Shown here piece by piece: positions 14,321-40,830 of a DNA stretch of 64,000 nt. The stretch is taken from the NCBI GenBank assembly GCA_031289755.1, contig JAITOU010000001.1:3316-67315 (forward strand), in the 5' to 3' direction. A program made the translations under genes and the position numbers. This DNA is from Clostridiales bacterium. GTDB taxonomy: Bacteria > Bacillota > Clostridia > Christensenellales > JAISNN01. Below the pieces are notes generated by a model. It saw only the letters and a program-made list of their open reading frames with translations, was not told where the DNA came from and made no database searches. The first letter of the stretch is position 1. The number at the start of each line of letters is the position of its first letter.

Positions 14321-15646
14321 TCAAATCAATTCTTCGGTAATGCGTACAAAATGTTTTCCGCGTTCTTCATAGCTTCTATACCTGTCAAAGCTTGCGGACG
14401 CCGGAGAAAATAACACGTTATCGGGAGCGGCGGCATAAGCCTGTTTGACGCATTCTTCGAGCGTCGCCGTCTCAGATATCTTTATAGCTTCAAAACCGCT
14501 TGCCGCCGCGAGTATTTTGTGTGAGTTTTGACCCGTTACGAATATCTCTTTGACGCTCTTCGGCATATCCTTAAACAAATCGCCGAAATTCTCGCCCTTG
14601 TCGCTCCCCCCCAATATCAAAACCGTTTCACCGACCATACTCTTTACGGCGGCGACCGTCGCGTGTACGTTCGTTCCCTTGCTGTCGTCAAAAAAATCCG
14701 TGCCGCCTATTCTTCTGACAAATTCTATCCTGTGACGCGGCGGCTCAAAGCTTTTTAAAGCCGCTTCTATATCGTCGCTCCCGATGTTTTTTAAGTATGC
14801 GGCGCAAATGGCGGCGAGAGCGTTTTCGAGATTGTGCCGTCCTTTGAGCGGTATATCGCTTACCGTACAAATCTTCTTTGCCGTCCTGCCGTCGTCAAAG
14901 ATTATATCGCCGTCCTTGACATATACGCCCTTGACGCGCCTTTCCGCCGAAAAATAAAAAAGCTCCGACTCATATCCTTGCGGCATTCCGTTGCCGAATT
15001 TTTCTCTCAAATACGGGTCGTCCGCATTTATCACGGCGAAATCGTTTCGGGTCTGATTTAAAAACAGGTTTAGCTTTGCGGCAAAATACTCCTTAATATC
15101 GGCGTGTCGGTCGAGATGGTCGGGGGCAAAATTTAAAAAGACGGCGATGTGCGGACGGAAGGTTTTTATGCTCTCCAACTGAAAGCTGCTGACCTCCAAC
15201 ACCGCTTCGTCGATACCAAGCCAAAAAAATTCTGAAAAAGGCGTACCGATATTGCCGAGCGCGGCACACCTTATGCCCGCCTTTTCAAAAATACCGTGTA
15301 TGAGCATTGTCACCGTCGTCTTGCCGTTTGTACCCGTTACGGCGGTCACGCCGCCGCCAAACGCCGCGTATGCCGTCTCCGTTTCGCCCACAACGGCTAT
15401 TCCCCTGCTTTCGGCTTGTTTTACAAGGGCTGAATTTATCGCCGCAGACGGACTGATAATGACCGAGTCTATCCCGTCAAAAAGTTTTTCCGTCTCATAT
15501 CCGCTTCTGTTCTCTCTGACAAAGCACGGGATATCCGCTACCGCTTTTTCATCGTAAATATAAACATTATCGCCCGTTTCGTTGACAAGCTTCGCCGCCG
15601 ACCGTCCGCTGCGTCCAAATCCTATGATAAGCACATTTTTACTCAT
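14321..15646 (-). CDS. murD: UDP-MurNAc-L-Ala:D-Glu ligase
   Basis: TGTNGKTT, EVSSFQL, DHLDRH, DDSKGTN, SPASASFD. Confidence 0.97.
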   Translation of the reverse strand: MSKNVLIIGFGRSGRSAAKLVNETGDNVYIYDEKAVADIPCFVRENRSGYETEKLFDGIDSVIISPSAAINSALVKQAESRGIAVVGETETAYAAFGGGVTAVTGTNGKTTVTMLIHGIFEKAGIRCAALGNIGTPFSEFFWLGIDEAVLEVSSFQLESIKTFRPHIAVFLNFAPDHLDRHADIKEYFAAKLNLFLNQTRNDFAVINADDPYLREKFGNGMPQGYESELFYFSAERRVKGVYVKDGDIIFDDGRTAKKICTVSDIPLKGRHNLENALAAICAAYLKNIGSDDIEAALKSFEPPRHRIEFVRRIGGTDFFDDSKGTNVHATVAAVKSMVGETVLILGGSDKGENFGDLFKDMPKSVKEIFVTGQNSHKILAAASGFEAIKISETATLEECVKQAYAAAPDNVLFSPASASFDRYRSYEERGKHFVRITEELI

Positions 15647-36775: not shown

Positions 36776-37117
36776 TTATCTTACTTCCTTTATCTTAGCC
36801 GCCTTACCCGTAAGACCTCTCAGATAATACAGCTTAGCGCGTCTGACCTTACCGCGTCTGACAATCTCGACATGGTCGAGCTTAGGCGAATGAAGCGGAA
36901 AGGTTCTCTCTACGCCTATGCCGAATGACATTCTGCGGACGGTAAAGGTTTCCCTTATGCTTCCGTTTCTTTTTGCAATGCAGACGCCTTCGTATGCCTG
37001 CAATCTTTCTCTTGTTCCTTCGACGACCTTAACAAAAACCTTGATAGTGTCGCCTACCTTAAATTCGGGAATGTCCGTTCTCAGACCTTCCTTCTCGATA
37101 ATGTCGATAATGTTCAT
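36776..37117 (-). CDS. rplS: 50S ribosomal protein L19
   Basis: [33 protein letters not shown]. Confidence 0.99.
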
Positions 37118-37140
37118 ATAAAATTCCTCCGTTCAAAAAA

Positions 37141-37176
37141 CGGCGTTCATGCGCGACAAAACACAGCGGACCGCCG
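37141..37176 (-). ncRNA. L19 leader RNA
   Basis: CGGCGGTCCGCTG...GCATGAACGCCG hairpin just upstream of the rplS SD, like the Firmicute L19 leader. Confidence 0.75.
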
Positions 37177-37327
37177 AAAGTCGATAATCATAATAACACA
37201 TCTATGTTATTTTTGCAACCGAAATCAAGGTGATACGCAAAAAAAGTTTTTTCATTTGCACGGTGTTGCAAAGCGTTTTCTGCCTAATTCGTCGGGCGAA
37301 TTAGGCAGATAAAGAGCTTAATAGGCA

Positions 37328-38254
37328 TTATTGGCTAAAATATGTCCTGAAAATAATAGCAATATTTATTATCCATATAACGATATTTATTATCCATATG
37401 AGAGTTCTTCTCTTCAAATCGTGGTACTTGTGCCTTTTTACCGTAGCAATAATCAATAGAACAACAGCAGCTATTATTGAAATTAGCATCGTCAATAGCG
37501 AAAAGGACAAATCAGACAAATCAGACCCATCAAAACCGTTAAGACGAGTAAAAAAGATAATTAGCGCAATAAGAAACGTAAGACACGGAATACAATACGG
37601 CAAACCGCTTATATTGCGTCTTAATTCGTATGTTTTTAGTTTTTTGGCGGCAAGCTCCGCTTTTTCACGTTCCGATTTCGCGGCGTTTTCTTCGGCAATC
37701 GTCTTTTCTTTTACGGCATTTTCTTCGGCAATTCTTATTTCTTCAATTATCTTGTTATTCTCTTCTTCTATCAGTTGTATCTGATTAGCAACGCTTTCAA
37801 GCTCTTCTATTTGAGCGGCGTTAGCAAATTTTATCGCATTCTTATATTCTTTATCGTCTAATATGACATAAAGCTCACATAAGCGGCTATACGTTCCGTT
37901 CGCAAGCTGAATTTTTTTTCTGATTGTAAATTCTTTGAGATTTTTCTTTTTATATCTAATCAAAAGATAATATATCCACAGCTCGGCGCATTCCGCGTTG
38001 ATATCGCTTACCTTATCGCAGGTTATTTTTGCGCCGTCAAAATCTCCGTTCTCGATTTGCAGCTTTGCTTTCTTTAAAAGCGCGGCTTCGTTCGTGCCGG
38101 AAGCATTCGTTTTTTCTTTCGTGACATTTTTGAGCTTTTCGGCGTCATCTACGACATAAACGTTAAGACAATACGGACATTCCGCCGTGTTTCCCGACTT
38201 CGACACCGATAGCTGCGCGCCGCAAGTGGCGCAAGTGAATTTTTTGGCTTCCAT
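37328..38254 (-). CDS. Zn-ribbon + TPR-like/coiled-coil + 3-TM membrane protein
   Basis: CATCGA...CPYC; helical repeat LLKKAKLQIENGDFDGA...; IAEENA repeats; three C-terminal TMs; AT-rich. Confidence 0.8.
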   Translation of the reverse strand: MEAKKFTCATCGAQLSVSKSGNTAECPYCLNVYVVDDAEKLKNVTKEKTNASGTNEAALLKKAKLQIENGDFDGAKITCDKVSDINAECAELWIYYLLIRYKKKNLKEFTIRKKIQLANGTYSRLCELYVILDDKEYKNAIKFANAAQIEELESVANQIQLIEEENNKIIEEIRIAEENAVKEKTIAEENAAKSEREKAELAAKKLKTYELRRNISGLPYCIPCLTFLIALIIFFTRLNGFDGSDLSDLSFSLLTMLISIIAAVVLLIIATVKRHKYHDLKRRTLIWIINIVIWIINIAIIFRTYFSQ

Positions 38255-38297
38255 TTTTTTGCTTTTTCCTATATATTATTTTTTTACATTTTTTTAT

Positions 38298-38347
38298 AAC
38301 AAAAAAAACAACTCCGTTATCTCATATAAGTGAAAGTCCGGAATTGC
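38298..38347 (-). terminator. Attenuator-type intrinsic terminator upstream of 38254
   Basis: Minus strand GCAATTCCG-N22-CGGAGTTGT followed by T7. Confidence 0.7.
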
Positions 38348-38395
38348 TTTTGTTTTTATATATTAAAAATTGTTTTAACGCATTACAAAATACGG

Positions 38396-38485
38396 CTACA
38401 TAATAGGTGTACCCCCCCCCGATGTAACTTGTATCATATCGCGTTTTTCTTCGTTTTTTTCGTTTATTATCGTCGCTTTTTTCAT
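38396..38485 (-). CDS. Leader peptide containing a G9 tract (29 aa)
   Basis: MKKATIINEKNEEKRDMIQVTSGGGTPIM*; C9 at 38412-38420 on the plus strand. Confidence 0.6.
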   Translation of the reverse strand: MKKATIINEKNEEKRDMIQVTSGGGTPIM

Positions 38486-38514
38486 AAATATCTCTTTTGT
38501 TTTTTTATTGATTT

Positions 38515-38562
38515 TTATTATAGTCTTTATTATAGTCTATAATAAAATTTGCTATTTGTCAA
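38515..38562 (-). promoter_or_regulatory. Sigma-A promoter with 12-bp tandem repeat
   Basis: TTGACA-N17-TAGACT; TTATTATAGTCT at 38515-38526 and 38527-38538. Confidence 0.7.
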
Positions 38563-38593
38563 TTATTTTACGGATATTAATTGCACAATGCCG

Positions 38594-39730
38594 TTAATTC
38601 GTTTTGCGACCGCGTGCGGCGGCGACGGCGCAGAGCATTGTTCCTTTGTGCATTCCGGCGTGAACGCCTTTCATGCGAATAAACTCCTTATGCGTCCATA
38701 TAAAAGAATCGCCTATGCCGACGGTTAAGTAGTCGCCGATAAATTCGCTCATGCGCGGATGATTTTCACCCGTGCCGTAGAGCTGCGCGTCCAAGACCTC
38801 TTGTTTTGTAAAGACCTTATATCCCGGCGCGTATTTTCGCATGATTTTTAAAAAATCATCTTCCTTACCTTTTTTGATACGGAAAGAAATCGCAAGCGGT
38901 TCGAGACTCGGCGTTGCGGACAGACACGCTTTCAGACCGGGTATTTCACGCATAAACGTGTTTTTTGCCGCGTCCACCTGTCCGTGATCGCAGGTGACGA
39001 TAAGCGCGGTATCGGAGGGCAAGGCGGCGGCAAGCGATTTGAGCGTTTCGTCCAGACTCCGTGCGGTTTGCTTAGACGCCTCGCTATATACTCCTTTGTC
39101 GTGAAAGGTATTGTCCGGTTCGTTAAAATACGCGTAAATAAACCGCCGCTCGGTATTCTCGCAGAGCTTTTTTATCCGTTCCGCGATACCGCCGAAGGTA
39201 AAATGCCTGTCCGCGCCGGAAGCAAAAGCCGATATATAATTTACCGCGACACCCGTTTCGGCAATTCTCTCGCATACGCTCTTTACAGAATGCGGCAAAT
39301 CGCGGTCAACCTTATTGTAGCCGCGAAGCTTGATTCTCTGACCGTAGGTCTTTCCCGAAAATACCTCGATAGATTTTTTGATATCGCCGAAATACATCGC
39401 CCACCCCAAACGGCAATGAGCGTTGGGGAATTGCTCGCGTTCGATAGAAGTCAGCGCGGCGGCGGTCGTCGGCGGAAAGACCGAACTGACCGTATCCAAA
39501 CGGTTGCCGATAAGGAACGAGGTTTCGTCCAAACAAATATCCTGATTCCACGCCCCGAACCCGTCCGTCACCAAAAAAACGACCTTTTCAAACTTCCCTT
39601 CCGTCAAAAATCGTTCCAAAGAAAACAGCGGCTCATGATAATGCTCCGCCCCGAAGTATGCCGACAAAGCCGAAGAGATATTGACAATCGACTTTTTGTA
39701 ATCGGGGTAGCACAGCTCATATTCGTTCAT
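38594..39730 (-). CDS. Alkaline phosphatase superfamily phosphodiesterase (NPP-like)
   Basis: VTDGFG, SVFPPTT, EPDNTFH, TCDHG, GVHAG. Confidence 0.9.
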   Translation of the reverse strand: MNEYELCYPDYKKSIVNISSALSAYFGAEHYHEPLFSLERFLTEGKFEKVVFLVTDGFGAWNQDICLDETSFLIGNRLDTVSSVFPPTTAAALTSIEREQFPNAHCRLGWAMYFGDIKKSIEVFSGKTYGQRIKLRGYNKVDRDLPHSVKSVCERIAETGVAVNYISAFASGADRHFTFGGIAERIKKLCENTERRFIYAYFNEPDNTFHDKGVYSEASKQTARSLDETLKSLAAALPSDTALIVTCDHGQVDAAKNTFMREIPGLKACLSATPSLEPLAISFRIKKGKEDDFLKIMRKYAPGYKVFTKQEVLDAQLYGTGENHPRMSEFIGDYLTVGIGDSFIWTHKEFIRMKGVHAGMHKGTMLCAVAAARGRKTN

Positions 39731-39765
39731 TTATGCCAACCTCCAAGTCGTTTATTACTCGTTCC

Positions 39766-40830
39766 TTACAAATAAAAAGCCTTCGTCTTTGAGTAATCTC
39801 TATGAAAGGAATACACGGCTTCTTTCTTATCGAGATTGTATACTACCGACCATTGCGTGCCGCCGCCCTGCCAGCTCATCGCCACTTGCGACAGCAGAGC
39901 CATTGCGCCCGACACCGACAATACGCCGTTGCTTGCGTCCAAAACGGCTTTTGCCGCGTCGTATCTGTCCTTGCCGAAGTCATCCGCCTGCGCGTCGTCA
40001 CTCATGAGAAAATTTGTCGTCAAAAGATAACTGCCGTCCTTGTAGATAGTCTTCATCTCGTTGGCGACGTATTCGATAATGACGCTTGCGCCGCTCTTGT
40101 CCGCTATCTGAAAATGATAAGGACCGCCCACGCTGTCGTGCAAATCGTATCGGGCTATCAGCTCTACGGCGTCCGCCGCACTTGCCGCTTTGTCCAAGAC
40201 AAGGCGTATAAGCGTGGTCGTCGTTATATCTTTTTTGGCGGTGCTTTGATTTGCCGATTCGCCGTTGACCATATTTACGGCGATAGACACGCCCTTTTCG
40301 TTCATTCCGTCGAGCGGAAGGTACGGAGCGGCAAGCGTCAAAAATCTGTCCTTCAATGCGTCCGGCAAATAGCCGTAATCGTATCCCAAAAAGCTTAGAT
40401 TGACGGTGGAAATAGATTTATATCCGTTTTTGGGAGAGGTCGCGAGTATCATTATAGGCGTATCTTCAAGGTCAAAATTTCTCGAAAATGTCCTGTCTCC
40501 CGACGGCGTAATCGCCGTAAAGGTCGTACAGGCAATATCGGGTATCTGCACGTCTATCGGCAGACCTTTGAGCAGCTTTTGCATGATAAAGGTCTTTAAT
40601 TCCTCGTCGGAGCTTGCGCCTTTCTCCAAAAAATCGTCGAAATAATAATCGTTCTTATAGGACATTTGATATAAGCCTGCGCCGATTTTTTTTACCGACA
40701 AAAAAGCGTTCGCTTCGTTAAAGAAGATAGCATAAAAGATTCCCGCCGTCAAAAAGACAGCGAGAATCACAAAGCCGAAAATCTTTAAAAGCAACCCGGT
40801 AAGTTTTCGTTTACTTAACTCTCCGCGCAT
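39766..40830 (-). CDS. Membrane-anchored Ntn hydrolase (choloylglycine hydrolase/linear amide C-N hydrolase family)
   Basis: N-terminal TM; ACTTF nucleophile, SRNFD, DGMNEKG, TNF, TQWSVVY; AAGGAG SD before ATG 40830. Confidence 0.85.
   Translation of the reverse strand: MRGELSKRKLTGLLLKIFGFVILAVFLTAGIFYAIFFNEANAFLSVKKIGAGLYQMSYKNDYYFDDFLEKGASSDEELKTFIMQKLLKGLPIDVQIPDIACTTFTAITPSGDRTFSRNFDLEDTPIMILATSPKNGYKSISTVNLSFLGYDYGYLPDALKDRFLTLAAPYLPLDGMNEKGVSIAVNMVNGESANQSTAKKDITTTTLIRLVLDKAASAADAVELIARYDLHDSVGGPYHFQIADKSGASVIIEYVANEMKTIYKDGSYLLTTNFLMSDDAQADDFGKDRYDAAKAVLDASNGVLSVSGAMALLSQVAMSWQGGGTQWSVVYNLDKKEAVYSFHRDYSKTKAFYL

Follow-up and report, generated by a model that had tools for sequence, protein, structure and literature searches.

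A cassette of about 293 nt, made up in order of a promoter, a leader ORF of 22–25 codons, a G tract, a long hairpin and a two-tier terminator, is present in four full-length copies (77–80% identity by BLASTN) in a 1.98-Mb termite-gut MAG from an uncultured bacterium. The anatomy of the cassette and its conservation are shown here. We propose that it may act as a portable, heritable ON/OFF transcription switch for the gene behind it, a proposal that we find as easy to doubt as to believe. Useful rates of change in tract length, termination of transcription at the hairpin and its relief by translation are all inferred, in the absence of RNA data.

Anatomy of the cassette

Coordinates are those of the window, the whole 64,000-nt stretch of DNA that was analyzed, and all features lie on the minus strand unless stated otherwise. 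Alignment of the four loci (MAFFT) bounded the similarity to the three paralogs at 38290..38582, outside which the flanks are unrelated. The cassette opens with a block, aattaatatccgtaaaataa (38563..38582), that lies directly 5' of the −35 element and is nearly invariant in all four copies; it is a possible UP element or regulator site, a role that is only inferred. A promoter-like TTGACA-N17-TAGACT follows at 38534..38562 (TTGACA 38562–38557, TAGACT 38539–38534), and was the top promoter-like match within 37000–40000 in a promoter scan, agreeing at 10/12 positions. The paralogs carry TTGACA-N17-TAAACT, and TTGACA-N17-TAnACT is kept in 4/4 copies. A 12-nt unit, agactataataa, is duplicated in tandem at 38515..38538 in this copy only, the other three having a single unit. 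The leader ATG (38485) is present in all four copies, as is a weak SD-like AAAGAG 6 nt 5' of it (38492..38497), whose SD function is inferred. Compared with the paralogs, the leader at this locus lacks 9 nt, a deletion that keeps the frame. An antisense ORF of 70 aa on the plus strand (38330..38542) was considered and rejected, as neither its frame nor its length is kept in the paralogs.

The G9 tract (38412..38420; C9 on the plus strand) was read directly from the sequence. It occupies the apical loop of a long, imperfect hairpin, P1 (38379..38443; inner stem 38428–38422 / 38401–38395), with two compensatory pairs among the four copies (RNAalifold). The inner P1 hairpin, with a dG of about −9.6, precedes a U-rich run. 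A two-tier intrinsic terminator hairpin is predicted at 38304..38351, with the outer stem AAAAGCAAUUCCGG/ACGGAGUUGUUUUU and the inner stem CUUUCA/UGAGAU, and is followed by a U8 run (38301..38308) that is partly paired with an A run. The predicted hairpin and a U7–8 run are kept in 4/4 copies in the consensus structure, for which there are no 3'-end data. The downstream gene, encoding 308 aa (37328..38254), starts 46 nt past the U tract, and a weak promoter-like TTGTTA-N16-AATAAT (38302–38275) lies between the terminator and this gene. Conservation within the cassette is highest in the promoter, the hairpin apex (the G run and UACACCUAUUAU) and the terminator, and lower in the codons.

No G/C run in the window is longer than G9, and the only other run of at least 7 is a C7 at 14606–14612. 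Genome-wide, G/C runs of 6, 7, 8, 9 and 10 nt numbered 111, 8, 5, 5 and 2, a flat tail, whereas A/T runs kept decaying (674, 106, 8 and 1 for lengths 8–11). G/C runs of ≥8 nt are enriched across the whole genus. The genome encodes both MutS and MutL, and slippage rates may therefore be modest. The locus was found in a single DNA run and in no RNA run. In that DNA run, which is its probable source and was searched as contigs (~10x), one contig spanned the stretch with no differences and with G9 only. Contigs from that one run, in which the other pieces were paralogs, carry no information on tract heterogeneity or on expression.

Leader reading frames and the terminator

The G9 frame of the leader ORF (38396..38485) encodes 29 aa, MKKATIINEKNEEKRDMIQVTSGGGTPIM, and stops at a TAG (38398–38396). 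With G8 or G11 the leader would encode 33 or 34 aa and stop at a TAA (38383..38385), 31 nt 5' of the terminator hairpin. These short-frame (OFF) stops are 31–49 nt 5' of the hairpin at this locus (44–49 nt for G9 and 31–36 nt for G8). With G7 or G10 the frame is 53 or 54 aa long, ends in NSGLSLI and stops at a TGA (38322..38324) in the terminator hairpin apex. All four copies follow this pattern: two short frames end 10–52 nt before the terminator 5' arm, and the third crosses the 5' arm to the same hairpin-apex TGA. The probability of an open long frame by chance is 0.06–0.08 per copy, and neither a 3-nt indel nor a compensated +1/−1 indel pair in copy C18 closes the frame. The long frame is currently used in 0/4 copies; three are one G short of it, and the remaining one (C9, with G8) is in the other short frame. 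Over the four copies dN/dS was 0.44–1.2 for the leader and 0.24–0.66 for the part after the tract. This weak peptide constraint is consistent, on comparative evidence only, with a leader whose reach matters and whose sequence does not.

The 276-nt leader folded with z = −4.09 against 200 shuffles, and the terminator hairpin, with a dG of −17.8 kcal/mol in this copy, was more stable still in two paralogs (−21.1 to −21.5). A simple terminator scan missed this hairpin because it accepted loops of 3–8 nt only. A crude terminator finder also missed the hairpins at C18 and at three loci in congeners (L096, L099 and L106); its table under-counts, and explicit folds were used at these loci. When the part of the RNA covered by a ribosome was masked in folding, the terminator was left intact with the short frames, 7–9 of the 9 bases of its 3' arm being paired, and was abolished with the long frame. 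No alternative antiterminator structure was found under this masking. The mask folding, a model prediction, shows that the geometry permits translation-gated read-through and nothing more; that read-through depends on translation is inferred. As a control, 767 long ORFs were examined. A terminator-like hairpin lay close to the stop codon in 123 of them; the stop was within that hairpin in 26 cases and 5' of it in 76. A stop in the hairpin, seen in four of six independent families, is only mildly unusual (P about 0.04, by our own arithmetic). Rfam 15 gave no family at threshold over 37000–40000 and only two sub-threshold matches, both to mir-4520. These two matches fall on a palindrome at 37264–37327, outside the cassette.

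The sequence-only reading had claimed the promoter, leader ATG, G9 tract, terminator arms and gene start, and these held at every coordinate. Its frame predictions (29 aa for G9, 33 aa for G8, and 54 aa ending at TGA 38324–38322 for G10) held on recomputation, its claim that G9 is the longest G/C run held for the window, and the arms that it had proposed (38347–38339 and 38316–38308) do pair. The 22-nt loop that it had placed between these arms failed: an inner stem of 5–6 bp lies there, and the outer stem is lengthened by A-U pairs. What that reading lacked, and is added here, is the long conserved hairpin whose apical loop contains the G tract.

Downstream genes and loci of the same logic

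The three paralogous copies, at C9:26098, C14:31809 and C18:2470, have unrelated flanks and precede genes for unrelated proteins, and in all four copies the gene that follows has the orientation of the cassette. The 308-aa protein at this locus has an N-terminal CxxC...CxxC zinc ribbon, a helical or TPR-like middle and C-terminal hydrophobic segments (maximum 19-aa hydrophobicity 2.94, at residue 250). Every Pfam match to it fell below the cut-off, and nothing but the protein itself came back from a homolog search of 5.8 billion clusters. A strong hydrophobic segment was present in seven of nine scorable downstream proteins compared with 42% of 1201 long ORFs, and the Pfam families of the downstream proteins are of envelope types.

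Loci of the same logic, unrelated in sequence to the cassette, were found at C26:94981 and C44:20162 in this genome and at L106, L096, L099 and L092 in congeners. Short-frame stops upstream of a hairpin and a long-frame stop in or past it are also seen at C26, L106 and L096; at C44 the stop is 5–13 nt upstream of the hairpin. The leader ATG lies 6 nt past a consensus −10 in three of the congener analogues, the position expected for a leaderless mRNA. L096 and L099, a pair in genome G001, are alike at the protein level in the distal part of the long frame. Taken with the four copies these analogues make ten loci, two of which are in the long frame now, and co-orientation with the following gene holds in 10/10.

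The searches found the cassette in its own genome only. BLASTN against 40 relatives (5 of the same genus and 35 of the same order) gave only short A-rich matches; those in genome G003 were considered as homologs and rejected as low-complexity repeats. A covariance model of the hairpin and terminator, run on 41 genomes, scored significantly for the four own copies only, and its next matches, at 38 bits, were rejected as unrelated hairpin pairs. The exact promoter pattern returned only three unrelated promoters from a collection of genome contigs with this genome left out, and metagenome scans gave no cassette match. All comparisons are therefore between paralogs of common ancestry. In a search of 5 congeners for orthologous loci free of the cassette, the upstream phosphodiesterase had one match, 31% identical, and the C14 binding protein had none.

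These results bear on further claims of the sequence-only reading. It would have been refuted by a tract of fixed length without a frame relation shared among homologous loci; the opposite was found, with tracts of G8, G9, G9 and G10 and the frame relation kept in 4/4 copies. The search that it had suggested for other leader/poly-G/terminator units in the genome yielded the three paralogs together with C26 and C44. Its description of the downstream gene as an orphan Zn-ribbon gene is supported by the zinc ribbon and by the lack of homologs. The device, which it had tied to that gene, is amended to a four-copy cassette before unrelated genes. Its proposal of a pil1-like homopolymer attenuator presently in the OFF state is supported by comparative evidence only, as termination, read-through and tract variation are inferred.

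The proposed switch, rival explanations and known systems

In the proposed mechanism, transcription would start at the conserved promoter and ribosomes would translate the leader from the ATG at 38485. With G9 or G8 the ribosomes would stop short, the hairpin would form and most transcripts would end at the U tract near 38300, leaving the gene OFF, which would be the present state. With G10 (one G gained) or G7 (two lost) the frame would cross the 5' arm to the apex TGA, where a ribosome would cover both arms; no terminator would then form, and RNA polymerase would enter the 308-aa gene (ON). Slipped replication of the G tract would switch between the two states, and the P1 hairpin that encloses the tract is inferred as a possible pause site coupling ribosome and polymerase. 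Ribosome-polymerase coupling has been reported to be loose in some Bacillota, and this counts against the mechanism. Look-alikes in the Atlas and the style of its SD and promoters tentatively suggest that the organism belongs to Bacillota. The weak SD of the leader, the presence of MutS and MutL and the promoter-like site at 38302–38275 also count against the switch model.

It is possible that the unit is instead a stand-alone gene for a phase-variable small protein, with a promoter, a long-frame ORF of 53–58 aa and its own terminator, the gene behind being incidental. The peptide would perhaps be exported, having a tract-encoded Gly-Gly, a charged leader and hydrophobic residues at −4 and −7, in the manner of double-glycine peptides. 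Consistent with this, the ORF is bracketed by promoter and terminator, the long frame is open in 4/4 copies and conservation is fair over its first 14 residues (YTYY.AVF...LKQ). The pattern [IV]xx[IV]xGG, which we take to be a match to the double-glycine consensus, recurs in the leaders of three unrelated families, the distal long frames of L096 and L099 are alike as proteins, and the genome has one C39-peptidase ABC transporter. Moreover, about 25% of ordinary genes in the control also end within a terminator hairpin, and the small gene is therefore not excluded. Against it, none of five leader or long-frame peptide queries matched NCBIfam at E values up to 10 (GG-leader and bacteriocin models included), and a profile of the long-frame peptide had no match in 1.84 billion representatives. 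The leader dN/dS is near neutral, the C-terminal third of C18 is frameshifted and yet reaches the same stop, and no copy is in the long frame. The sole Peptidase_C39 transporter is on contig C27, off all four cassette contigs, and the 335 nt 5' of it, up to the contig end, contain no GG-leader peptide gene. Co-orientation in 10/10 loci and the enrichment of envelope genes next to them would be unexpected for an independent small gene.

The remaining rivals have less in their favor. The attenuator might work as proposed with a frame change that is not inherited and that arises when the polymerase slips on the run or the ribosome shifts by −1 on G GGG GGG. Every cell would then let a constant share of its transcripts past the terminator, a form of tuning and not phase variation. 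Nine-base homopolymer runs are known sites of RNA polymerase slippage (a related review is PMC5009743), and three of the four copies are one G short, so that a 1-nt insertion in the RNA or a −1 slip would give the long frame. We consider this unlikely: C9 is in the other short frame, the phases of the analogues are mixed, with two in the long frame, which resembles drift between DNA states more than a recoding set-point, and the run is in a hairpin loop with no stimulatory structure 5–9 nt 3' of it. Also improbable is a multi-copy non-coding RNA or repeat, in which a promoter would drive a structured RNA of about 225 nt ending at the terminator, with the G run as loop or seed and the frames incidental. 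Conservation concentrated in promoter, hairpin apex and terminator, the weak constraint on the peptide and the weak SD would fit this explanation. It is opposed by the lack of an Rfam match, the retained ATG, indels in the leader and long frame that are multiples of three or compensated, early stops in both short frames of every copy, the leaderless-type ATG placement in three congener analogues, and the co-orientation of every copy with its downstream gene. Least likely by far is phase variation of a promoter spacer, with the G run between GTTACA (38428–38423) and TATTAT (38405–38400). GTTACA-N17-TATTAT scored 9/12 in the scan and TATTAT is kept in 4/4 copies; however, the −35-like GTTACA is in this copy only, the three paralogs having GCTATA or AGCTAT, and an internal promoter with the tract as spacer was rejected for want of a conserved −35. 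A transcript begun after 38400 would run into the terminator 50 nt on all the same, and the upstream promoter, the ATG and the frame pattern would be left unexplained.

The closest precedent for the switch model is the leader-peptide/terminator phase switch of the Streptococcus gallolyticus pil1 locus, which is experimentally proven (Danne et al. 2014, PMC3894217) and is the only experimentally studied case of leader-ORF/terminator phase variation in the literature that we searched. Both systems have a promoter, a repeat-bearing leader ORF, whose translation is inferred for the cassette, and, ahead of the downstream gene, an intrinsic terminator, which for the cassette is predicted. The OFF stop of pil1 is 39 bp upstream of the hairpin and its ON stop is within or after it (PMC3894217); the corresponding short-frame distance in the cassette is 31–49 nt, and its long-frame stop is likewise within the hairpin. 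A ribosome at such a stop keeps the terminator from folding in pil1, and would do so here. The repeat is a G homopolymer of 8–10 nt in the cassette and about 22 GCAGA pentamers in pil1. The GCAGA pentanucleotide is absent here, and we therefore regard the cassette as a variant of the pil1-type switch and not a homolog. Furthermore, pil1 is a single pilus operon, whereas the cassette occurs in four copies before unrelated genes. The cassette tract, unlike that of pil1, lies in the loop of a conserved hairpin, and the function of the cassette is unproven by experiment in an uncultured host.

The poly-G/C loci of Neisseria, Campylobacter and Helicobacter share with the cassette an over-representation of G/C runs ≥8, a link to the envelope and slipped-strand mispairing as the expected mechanism. 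Their tracts lie inside the regulated gene, where they shift the frame of the protein itself, or in or near its promoter, and in the porA/opc type of Neisseria the poly-G length varies the promoter spacer. In contrast, the cassette tract is in a separate leader ORF, and its output would be transcription termination. In trp/his and erm-type leaders, how far a ribosome has moved along a short leader ORF determines whether the terminator that follows can form. The cassette resembles these attenuators in its proposed reliance on ribosome reach and in a possible polymerase-pausing hairpin that overlaps the leader; it has neither regulatory codons nor an antiterminator hairpin, and its signal would be heritable rather than metabolic.

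Poly-G leader-ORF/terminator cassettes may serve this genus as a plug-in phase switch of general use, although here we lean slightly toward doubt. This plug-in reading would comprise several sequence-unrelated families, one of them duplicated four times, each before an envelope or accessory gene. If true, the cassette would be the first homopolymer-driven translation-gated attenuator and the first sign of a modular switch copied to new genes, and the leader/terminator phase principle would be general, modular and evolvable. It would also represent an extra class of contingency locus overlooked by phasome surveys, because such surveys seek tracts inside genes or promoters, and would suggest that an uncultured termite-gut bacterium varies its surface stochastically. 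The compact design of about 290 nt predicts a three-state read-out and is a potential synthetic stochastic switch.

Cassette anatomy and reading frames in the window

All of the elements listed in the sequence-only reading were found on the minus strand at the positions it had given: a promoter made up of TTGACA (38562-38557) and, after a 17-nt spacer, TAGACT (38539-38534), a leader ATG at 38485, a G9 run (38420-38412), a hairpin with a U tract, and a downstream 308-aa gene starting at 38254 (ORF listing). In a promoter scan TTGACA-N17-TAGACT was the best promoter-like site within 37000-40000 (10/12 matches). The terminator hairpin itself held, but the 22-nt loop ascribed to it did not. Folding gave a two-tier hairpin (38351-38304, dG -17.8 kcal/mol) with an outer stem lengthened by A-U pairs, 3+3 internal loops and an inner stem of 5-6 bp, followed by U8 ending near 38300. 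A second hairpin, P1 (38443-38379), is long and imperfect and holds the G run in its apical loop.

Translation from the leader ATG with 7-11 Gs reproduced the predicted products exactly. The G9 product is 29 aa and stops at TAG (38398-38396), G8 and G11 give 33 and 34 aa and stop at TAA (38385-38383), and G7 and G10 give 53 and 54 aa with the C-terminus ...NSGLSLI, stopping at TGA (38324-38322), the apex of the terminator hairpin. When the ribosome-covered stretch was masked in folding, the terminator remained intact in both short frames and was lost in the long frame, and these folds showed no alternative antiterminator.

Just 3' of the -10, a 12-nt tandem duplication (agactataataa x2, 38515-38538, minus strand), unique to this copy, creates a longer 5' UTR and a second -10-like TATAAT. 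Directly 3' of the 308-aa gene stop, a palindrome (37264-37327) matched an animal microRNA model in either orientation, but well under threshold; a bidirectional terminator hairpin is its most probable identity.

Four related copies in one genome

A genome search for other leader/poly-G/terminator units had been proposed. Listing every G/C run of at least 7 with its flanks recovered three paralogous copies with near-identical flanks, on contigs C9 (26098, G8), C14 (31809, G9) and C18 (2470, G10). In alignment the four copies are similar over ~290 nt (77-80% identity), starting 20 nt ahead of the -35 and ending shortly past the U tract, and the outer flanks are unrelated. Outside its own genome the cassette was found neither in 40 relatives, searched by BLASTN and with a covariance model, nor in one genome-collection scan and two metagenome scans.

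The downstream genes are co-oriented with the cassette in all four cases, and their proteins are mutually unrelated: an orphan Zn-ribbon membrane protein in the window and, by Pfam for the paralogs, an SPFH/Band_7_1 protein, a Peripla_BP_2 binding protein with an N-terminal anchor, and a coiled-coil protein without a family. Among 5.8 billion clusters the 308-aa protein found only itself, at that search's sensitivity; its Atlas look-alikes, hypothetical Zn-ribbon/TPR proteins mainly from Bacillota, serve only as a lead.

The early stops of two frames lie 27-52 nt upstream of the terminator 5' arm in every copy, with the C18 G9 frame (10 nt) as sole exception, and the third frame crosses the arm to a common TGA in 4/4 copies. 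An early stop has been lost in C14 (TAG to TGG) and in C18 (the TAA), and the following stop is still upstream of the terminator. The long frame contains a 3-nt indel that leaves it intact, a +1/-1 indel pair in C18 garbles ~5 residues before rejoining the common stop, and the leader of the window copy carries a 9-nt in-frame deletion. The frame logic is conserved across the copies, and the peptide much less so: dN/dS is 0.44-1.2 for the leader and 0.24-0.66 for the long-frame part (few sites). Conservation is strongest at the nucleotide level, in the promoter, P1 apex and terminator. An open 29-30-codon frame has a chance of 0.06-0.08 per copy at matching composition (26-28% G+C), and these values cannot be multiplied because the copies are related. 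RNAalifold on the four copies backed P1 with two compensatory pairs and the terminator mainly with invariant or wobble pairs. At present three copies (the window copy, C14 and C18) occupy the shortest frame, from which one added G would give the long frame, and C9 occupies the second short frame; no copy is in the long frame. Consensus tract lengths are somewhat uncertain at ~10x depth.

The 20 nt upstream of the -35 (38563-38582, minus strand) are near-invariant in all four cassettes, more conserved than the leader codons; they might be an UP element or a site for a common regulator. Immediately upstream of the C14 cassette, a 492-aa ORF (C14:30139-31617) contains a G8 run (C14:31147-31154) and could be an ordinary translational phase-variable gene adjoining an attenuator-type one.

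G/C runs and unrelated units in the genus

G/C runs of length 6-10 number 111, 8, 5, 5 and 2 in the 1.98-Mb genome, a flat tail, whereas A/T runs fall off steadily; the G9 run is not due to chance. Six of the 12 runs of at least 8 are in a leader/terminator arrangement, namely the four copies and the units at C26:94981 and C44:20162. The remainder comprise the run in the 492-aa ORF, two just 3' of terminator-like hairpins, one at a contig end and two without a leader.

The C26 unit (C26:94862-95143; locus L108, about 262-543) combines a perfect TTGACA-N17-TATAAT with a 16-codon leader (MKSTEERTSIICVRGG) and G9, and precedes a 606-aa ABC exporter gene. Its long frame (G8/G11) stays open for 29 further codons, and the TAG that closes it falls within a GC-rich terminator hairpin with U8. 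The C44 unit (C44:19955-20330, minus strand; locus L109) has TTGACA-N17-TATACT, the leader MKDTKVRGCPRRIANVIRGG and G10, and lies ahead of a lipoprotein-like gene (454 aa) that matches Big_3 and beta-helix families; its long frame (G9) stops 5-13 nt upstream of the terminator hairpin.

Runs of 8 or more are abundant in all six genomes of the genus, some at contig ends and possibly sequencing artefacts. The congener G005 has at least 44 distinct tracts of this size, the longest being G16 (C82:11426-11441), with a G14 at C21:18763-18776. One hairpin family, recurrent in G005 and G003, pairs the G run with a downstream C run (gc-Gn-aacttttg..caaaagtt-Cn). Most of the 39 tract contexts examined, drawn from four congeners, have no leader ORF, this hairpin family among them. 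Four repeat the leader/terminator logic in unrelated sequences; their leader ORFs carry G10-G14 tracts and are followed by terminators and membrane-protein genes. In L106 (G003, contig C6) the long frame ends within the hairpin, and in L096 its stop is in the hairpin loop. L099, a paralog of L096, now occupies the long frame and continues through the terminator, and L092 also now occupies the long frame (L092, L096 and L099 are on G001 contigs C78, C113 and C132). A consensus -10 precedes the leader ATG by 6 nt in L096, L099 and L106, which places the ATG where a leaderless mRNA would start and favours translation of these ORFs. A strongly hydrophobic segment is present in 7/9 scorable downstream proteins versus 42% of 1201 long ORFs (P about 0.03, our own arithmetic; the loci are not all independent).

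Interpretation, alternatives and controls

The best explanation, although it could as readily fail as stand, is a poly-G phase-variable, ribosome-gated attenuator, now OFF. The evidence is comparative; tract instability, termination and translation-dependent read-through are inferred. The sequence-only observation is confirmed as a whole, and its attenuator interpretation is supported and now takes in a family of cassettes and a pattern across the genus. In the S. gallolyticus pil1 locus, the GCAGA repeat number in a leader ORF sets the leader stop position (Danne et al. 2014, PMC3894217). A short leader peptide ends 39 bp ahead of the terminator and expression is low; out-of-frame repeat changes place the stop within or after the hairpin, where the ribosome blocks terminator folding and expression is high (PMC3894217). 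The cassette shares the parts of pil1, at nearly matching distances, but differs in its homopolymer repeat and in being a duplicated module. In the open-access literature only the pil1 work was found for leader-peptide/terminator phase switching; subscription journals were outside the scope, and absence is unproven.

A stand-alone phase-variable small gene is less likely but remains possible. That the unit is a non-coding RNA or repeat element is improbable. We also doubt that slippage at the RNA or ribosome level takes the place of heritable switching. The proposed check of tract length in reads was limited to the only sequencing run with the locus, its probable source, available as contigs; it gave G9 with no variants at ~10x, and no RNA run was on record. 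Least credible is a promoter-spacer switch.

One control weakens the stop-in-hairpin argument for the attenuator. An incomplete scan of 767 long ORFs, ended at contig C27, found 123 with a terminator-like hairpin near the stop: 76 stop before the hairpin, 26 stop inside it, and the other 21 contain the hairpin. The baseline for a stop inside the hairpin is near 25% in ordinary genes, and its occurrence in 4/6 independent leader families therefore stands out only mildly.

No precursor peptide gene was visible in the 335 nt upstream of the genome's single C39-peptidase ABC transporter (746 aa, C27:36478-38718, minus strand; locus L038), which lies at a contig end. MutS and MutL are both present in the genome.
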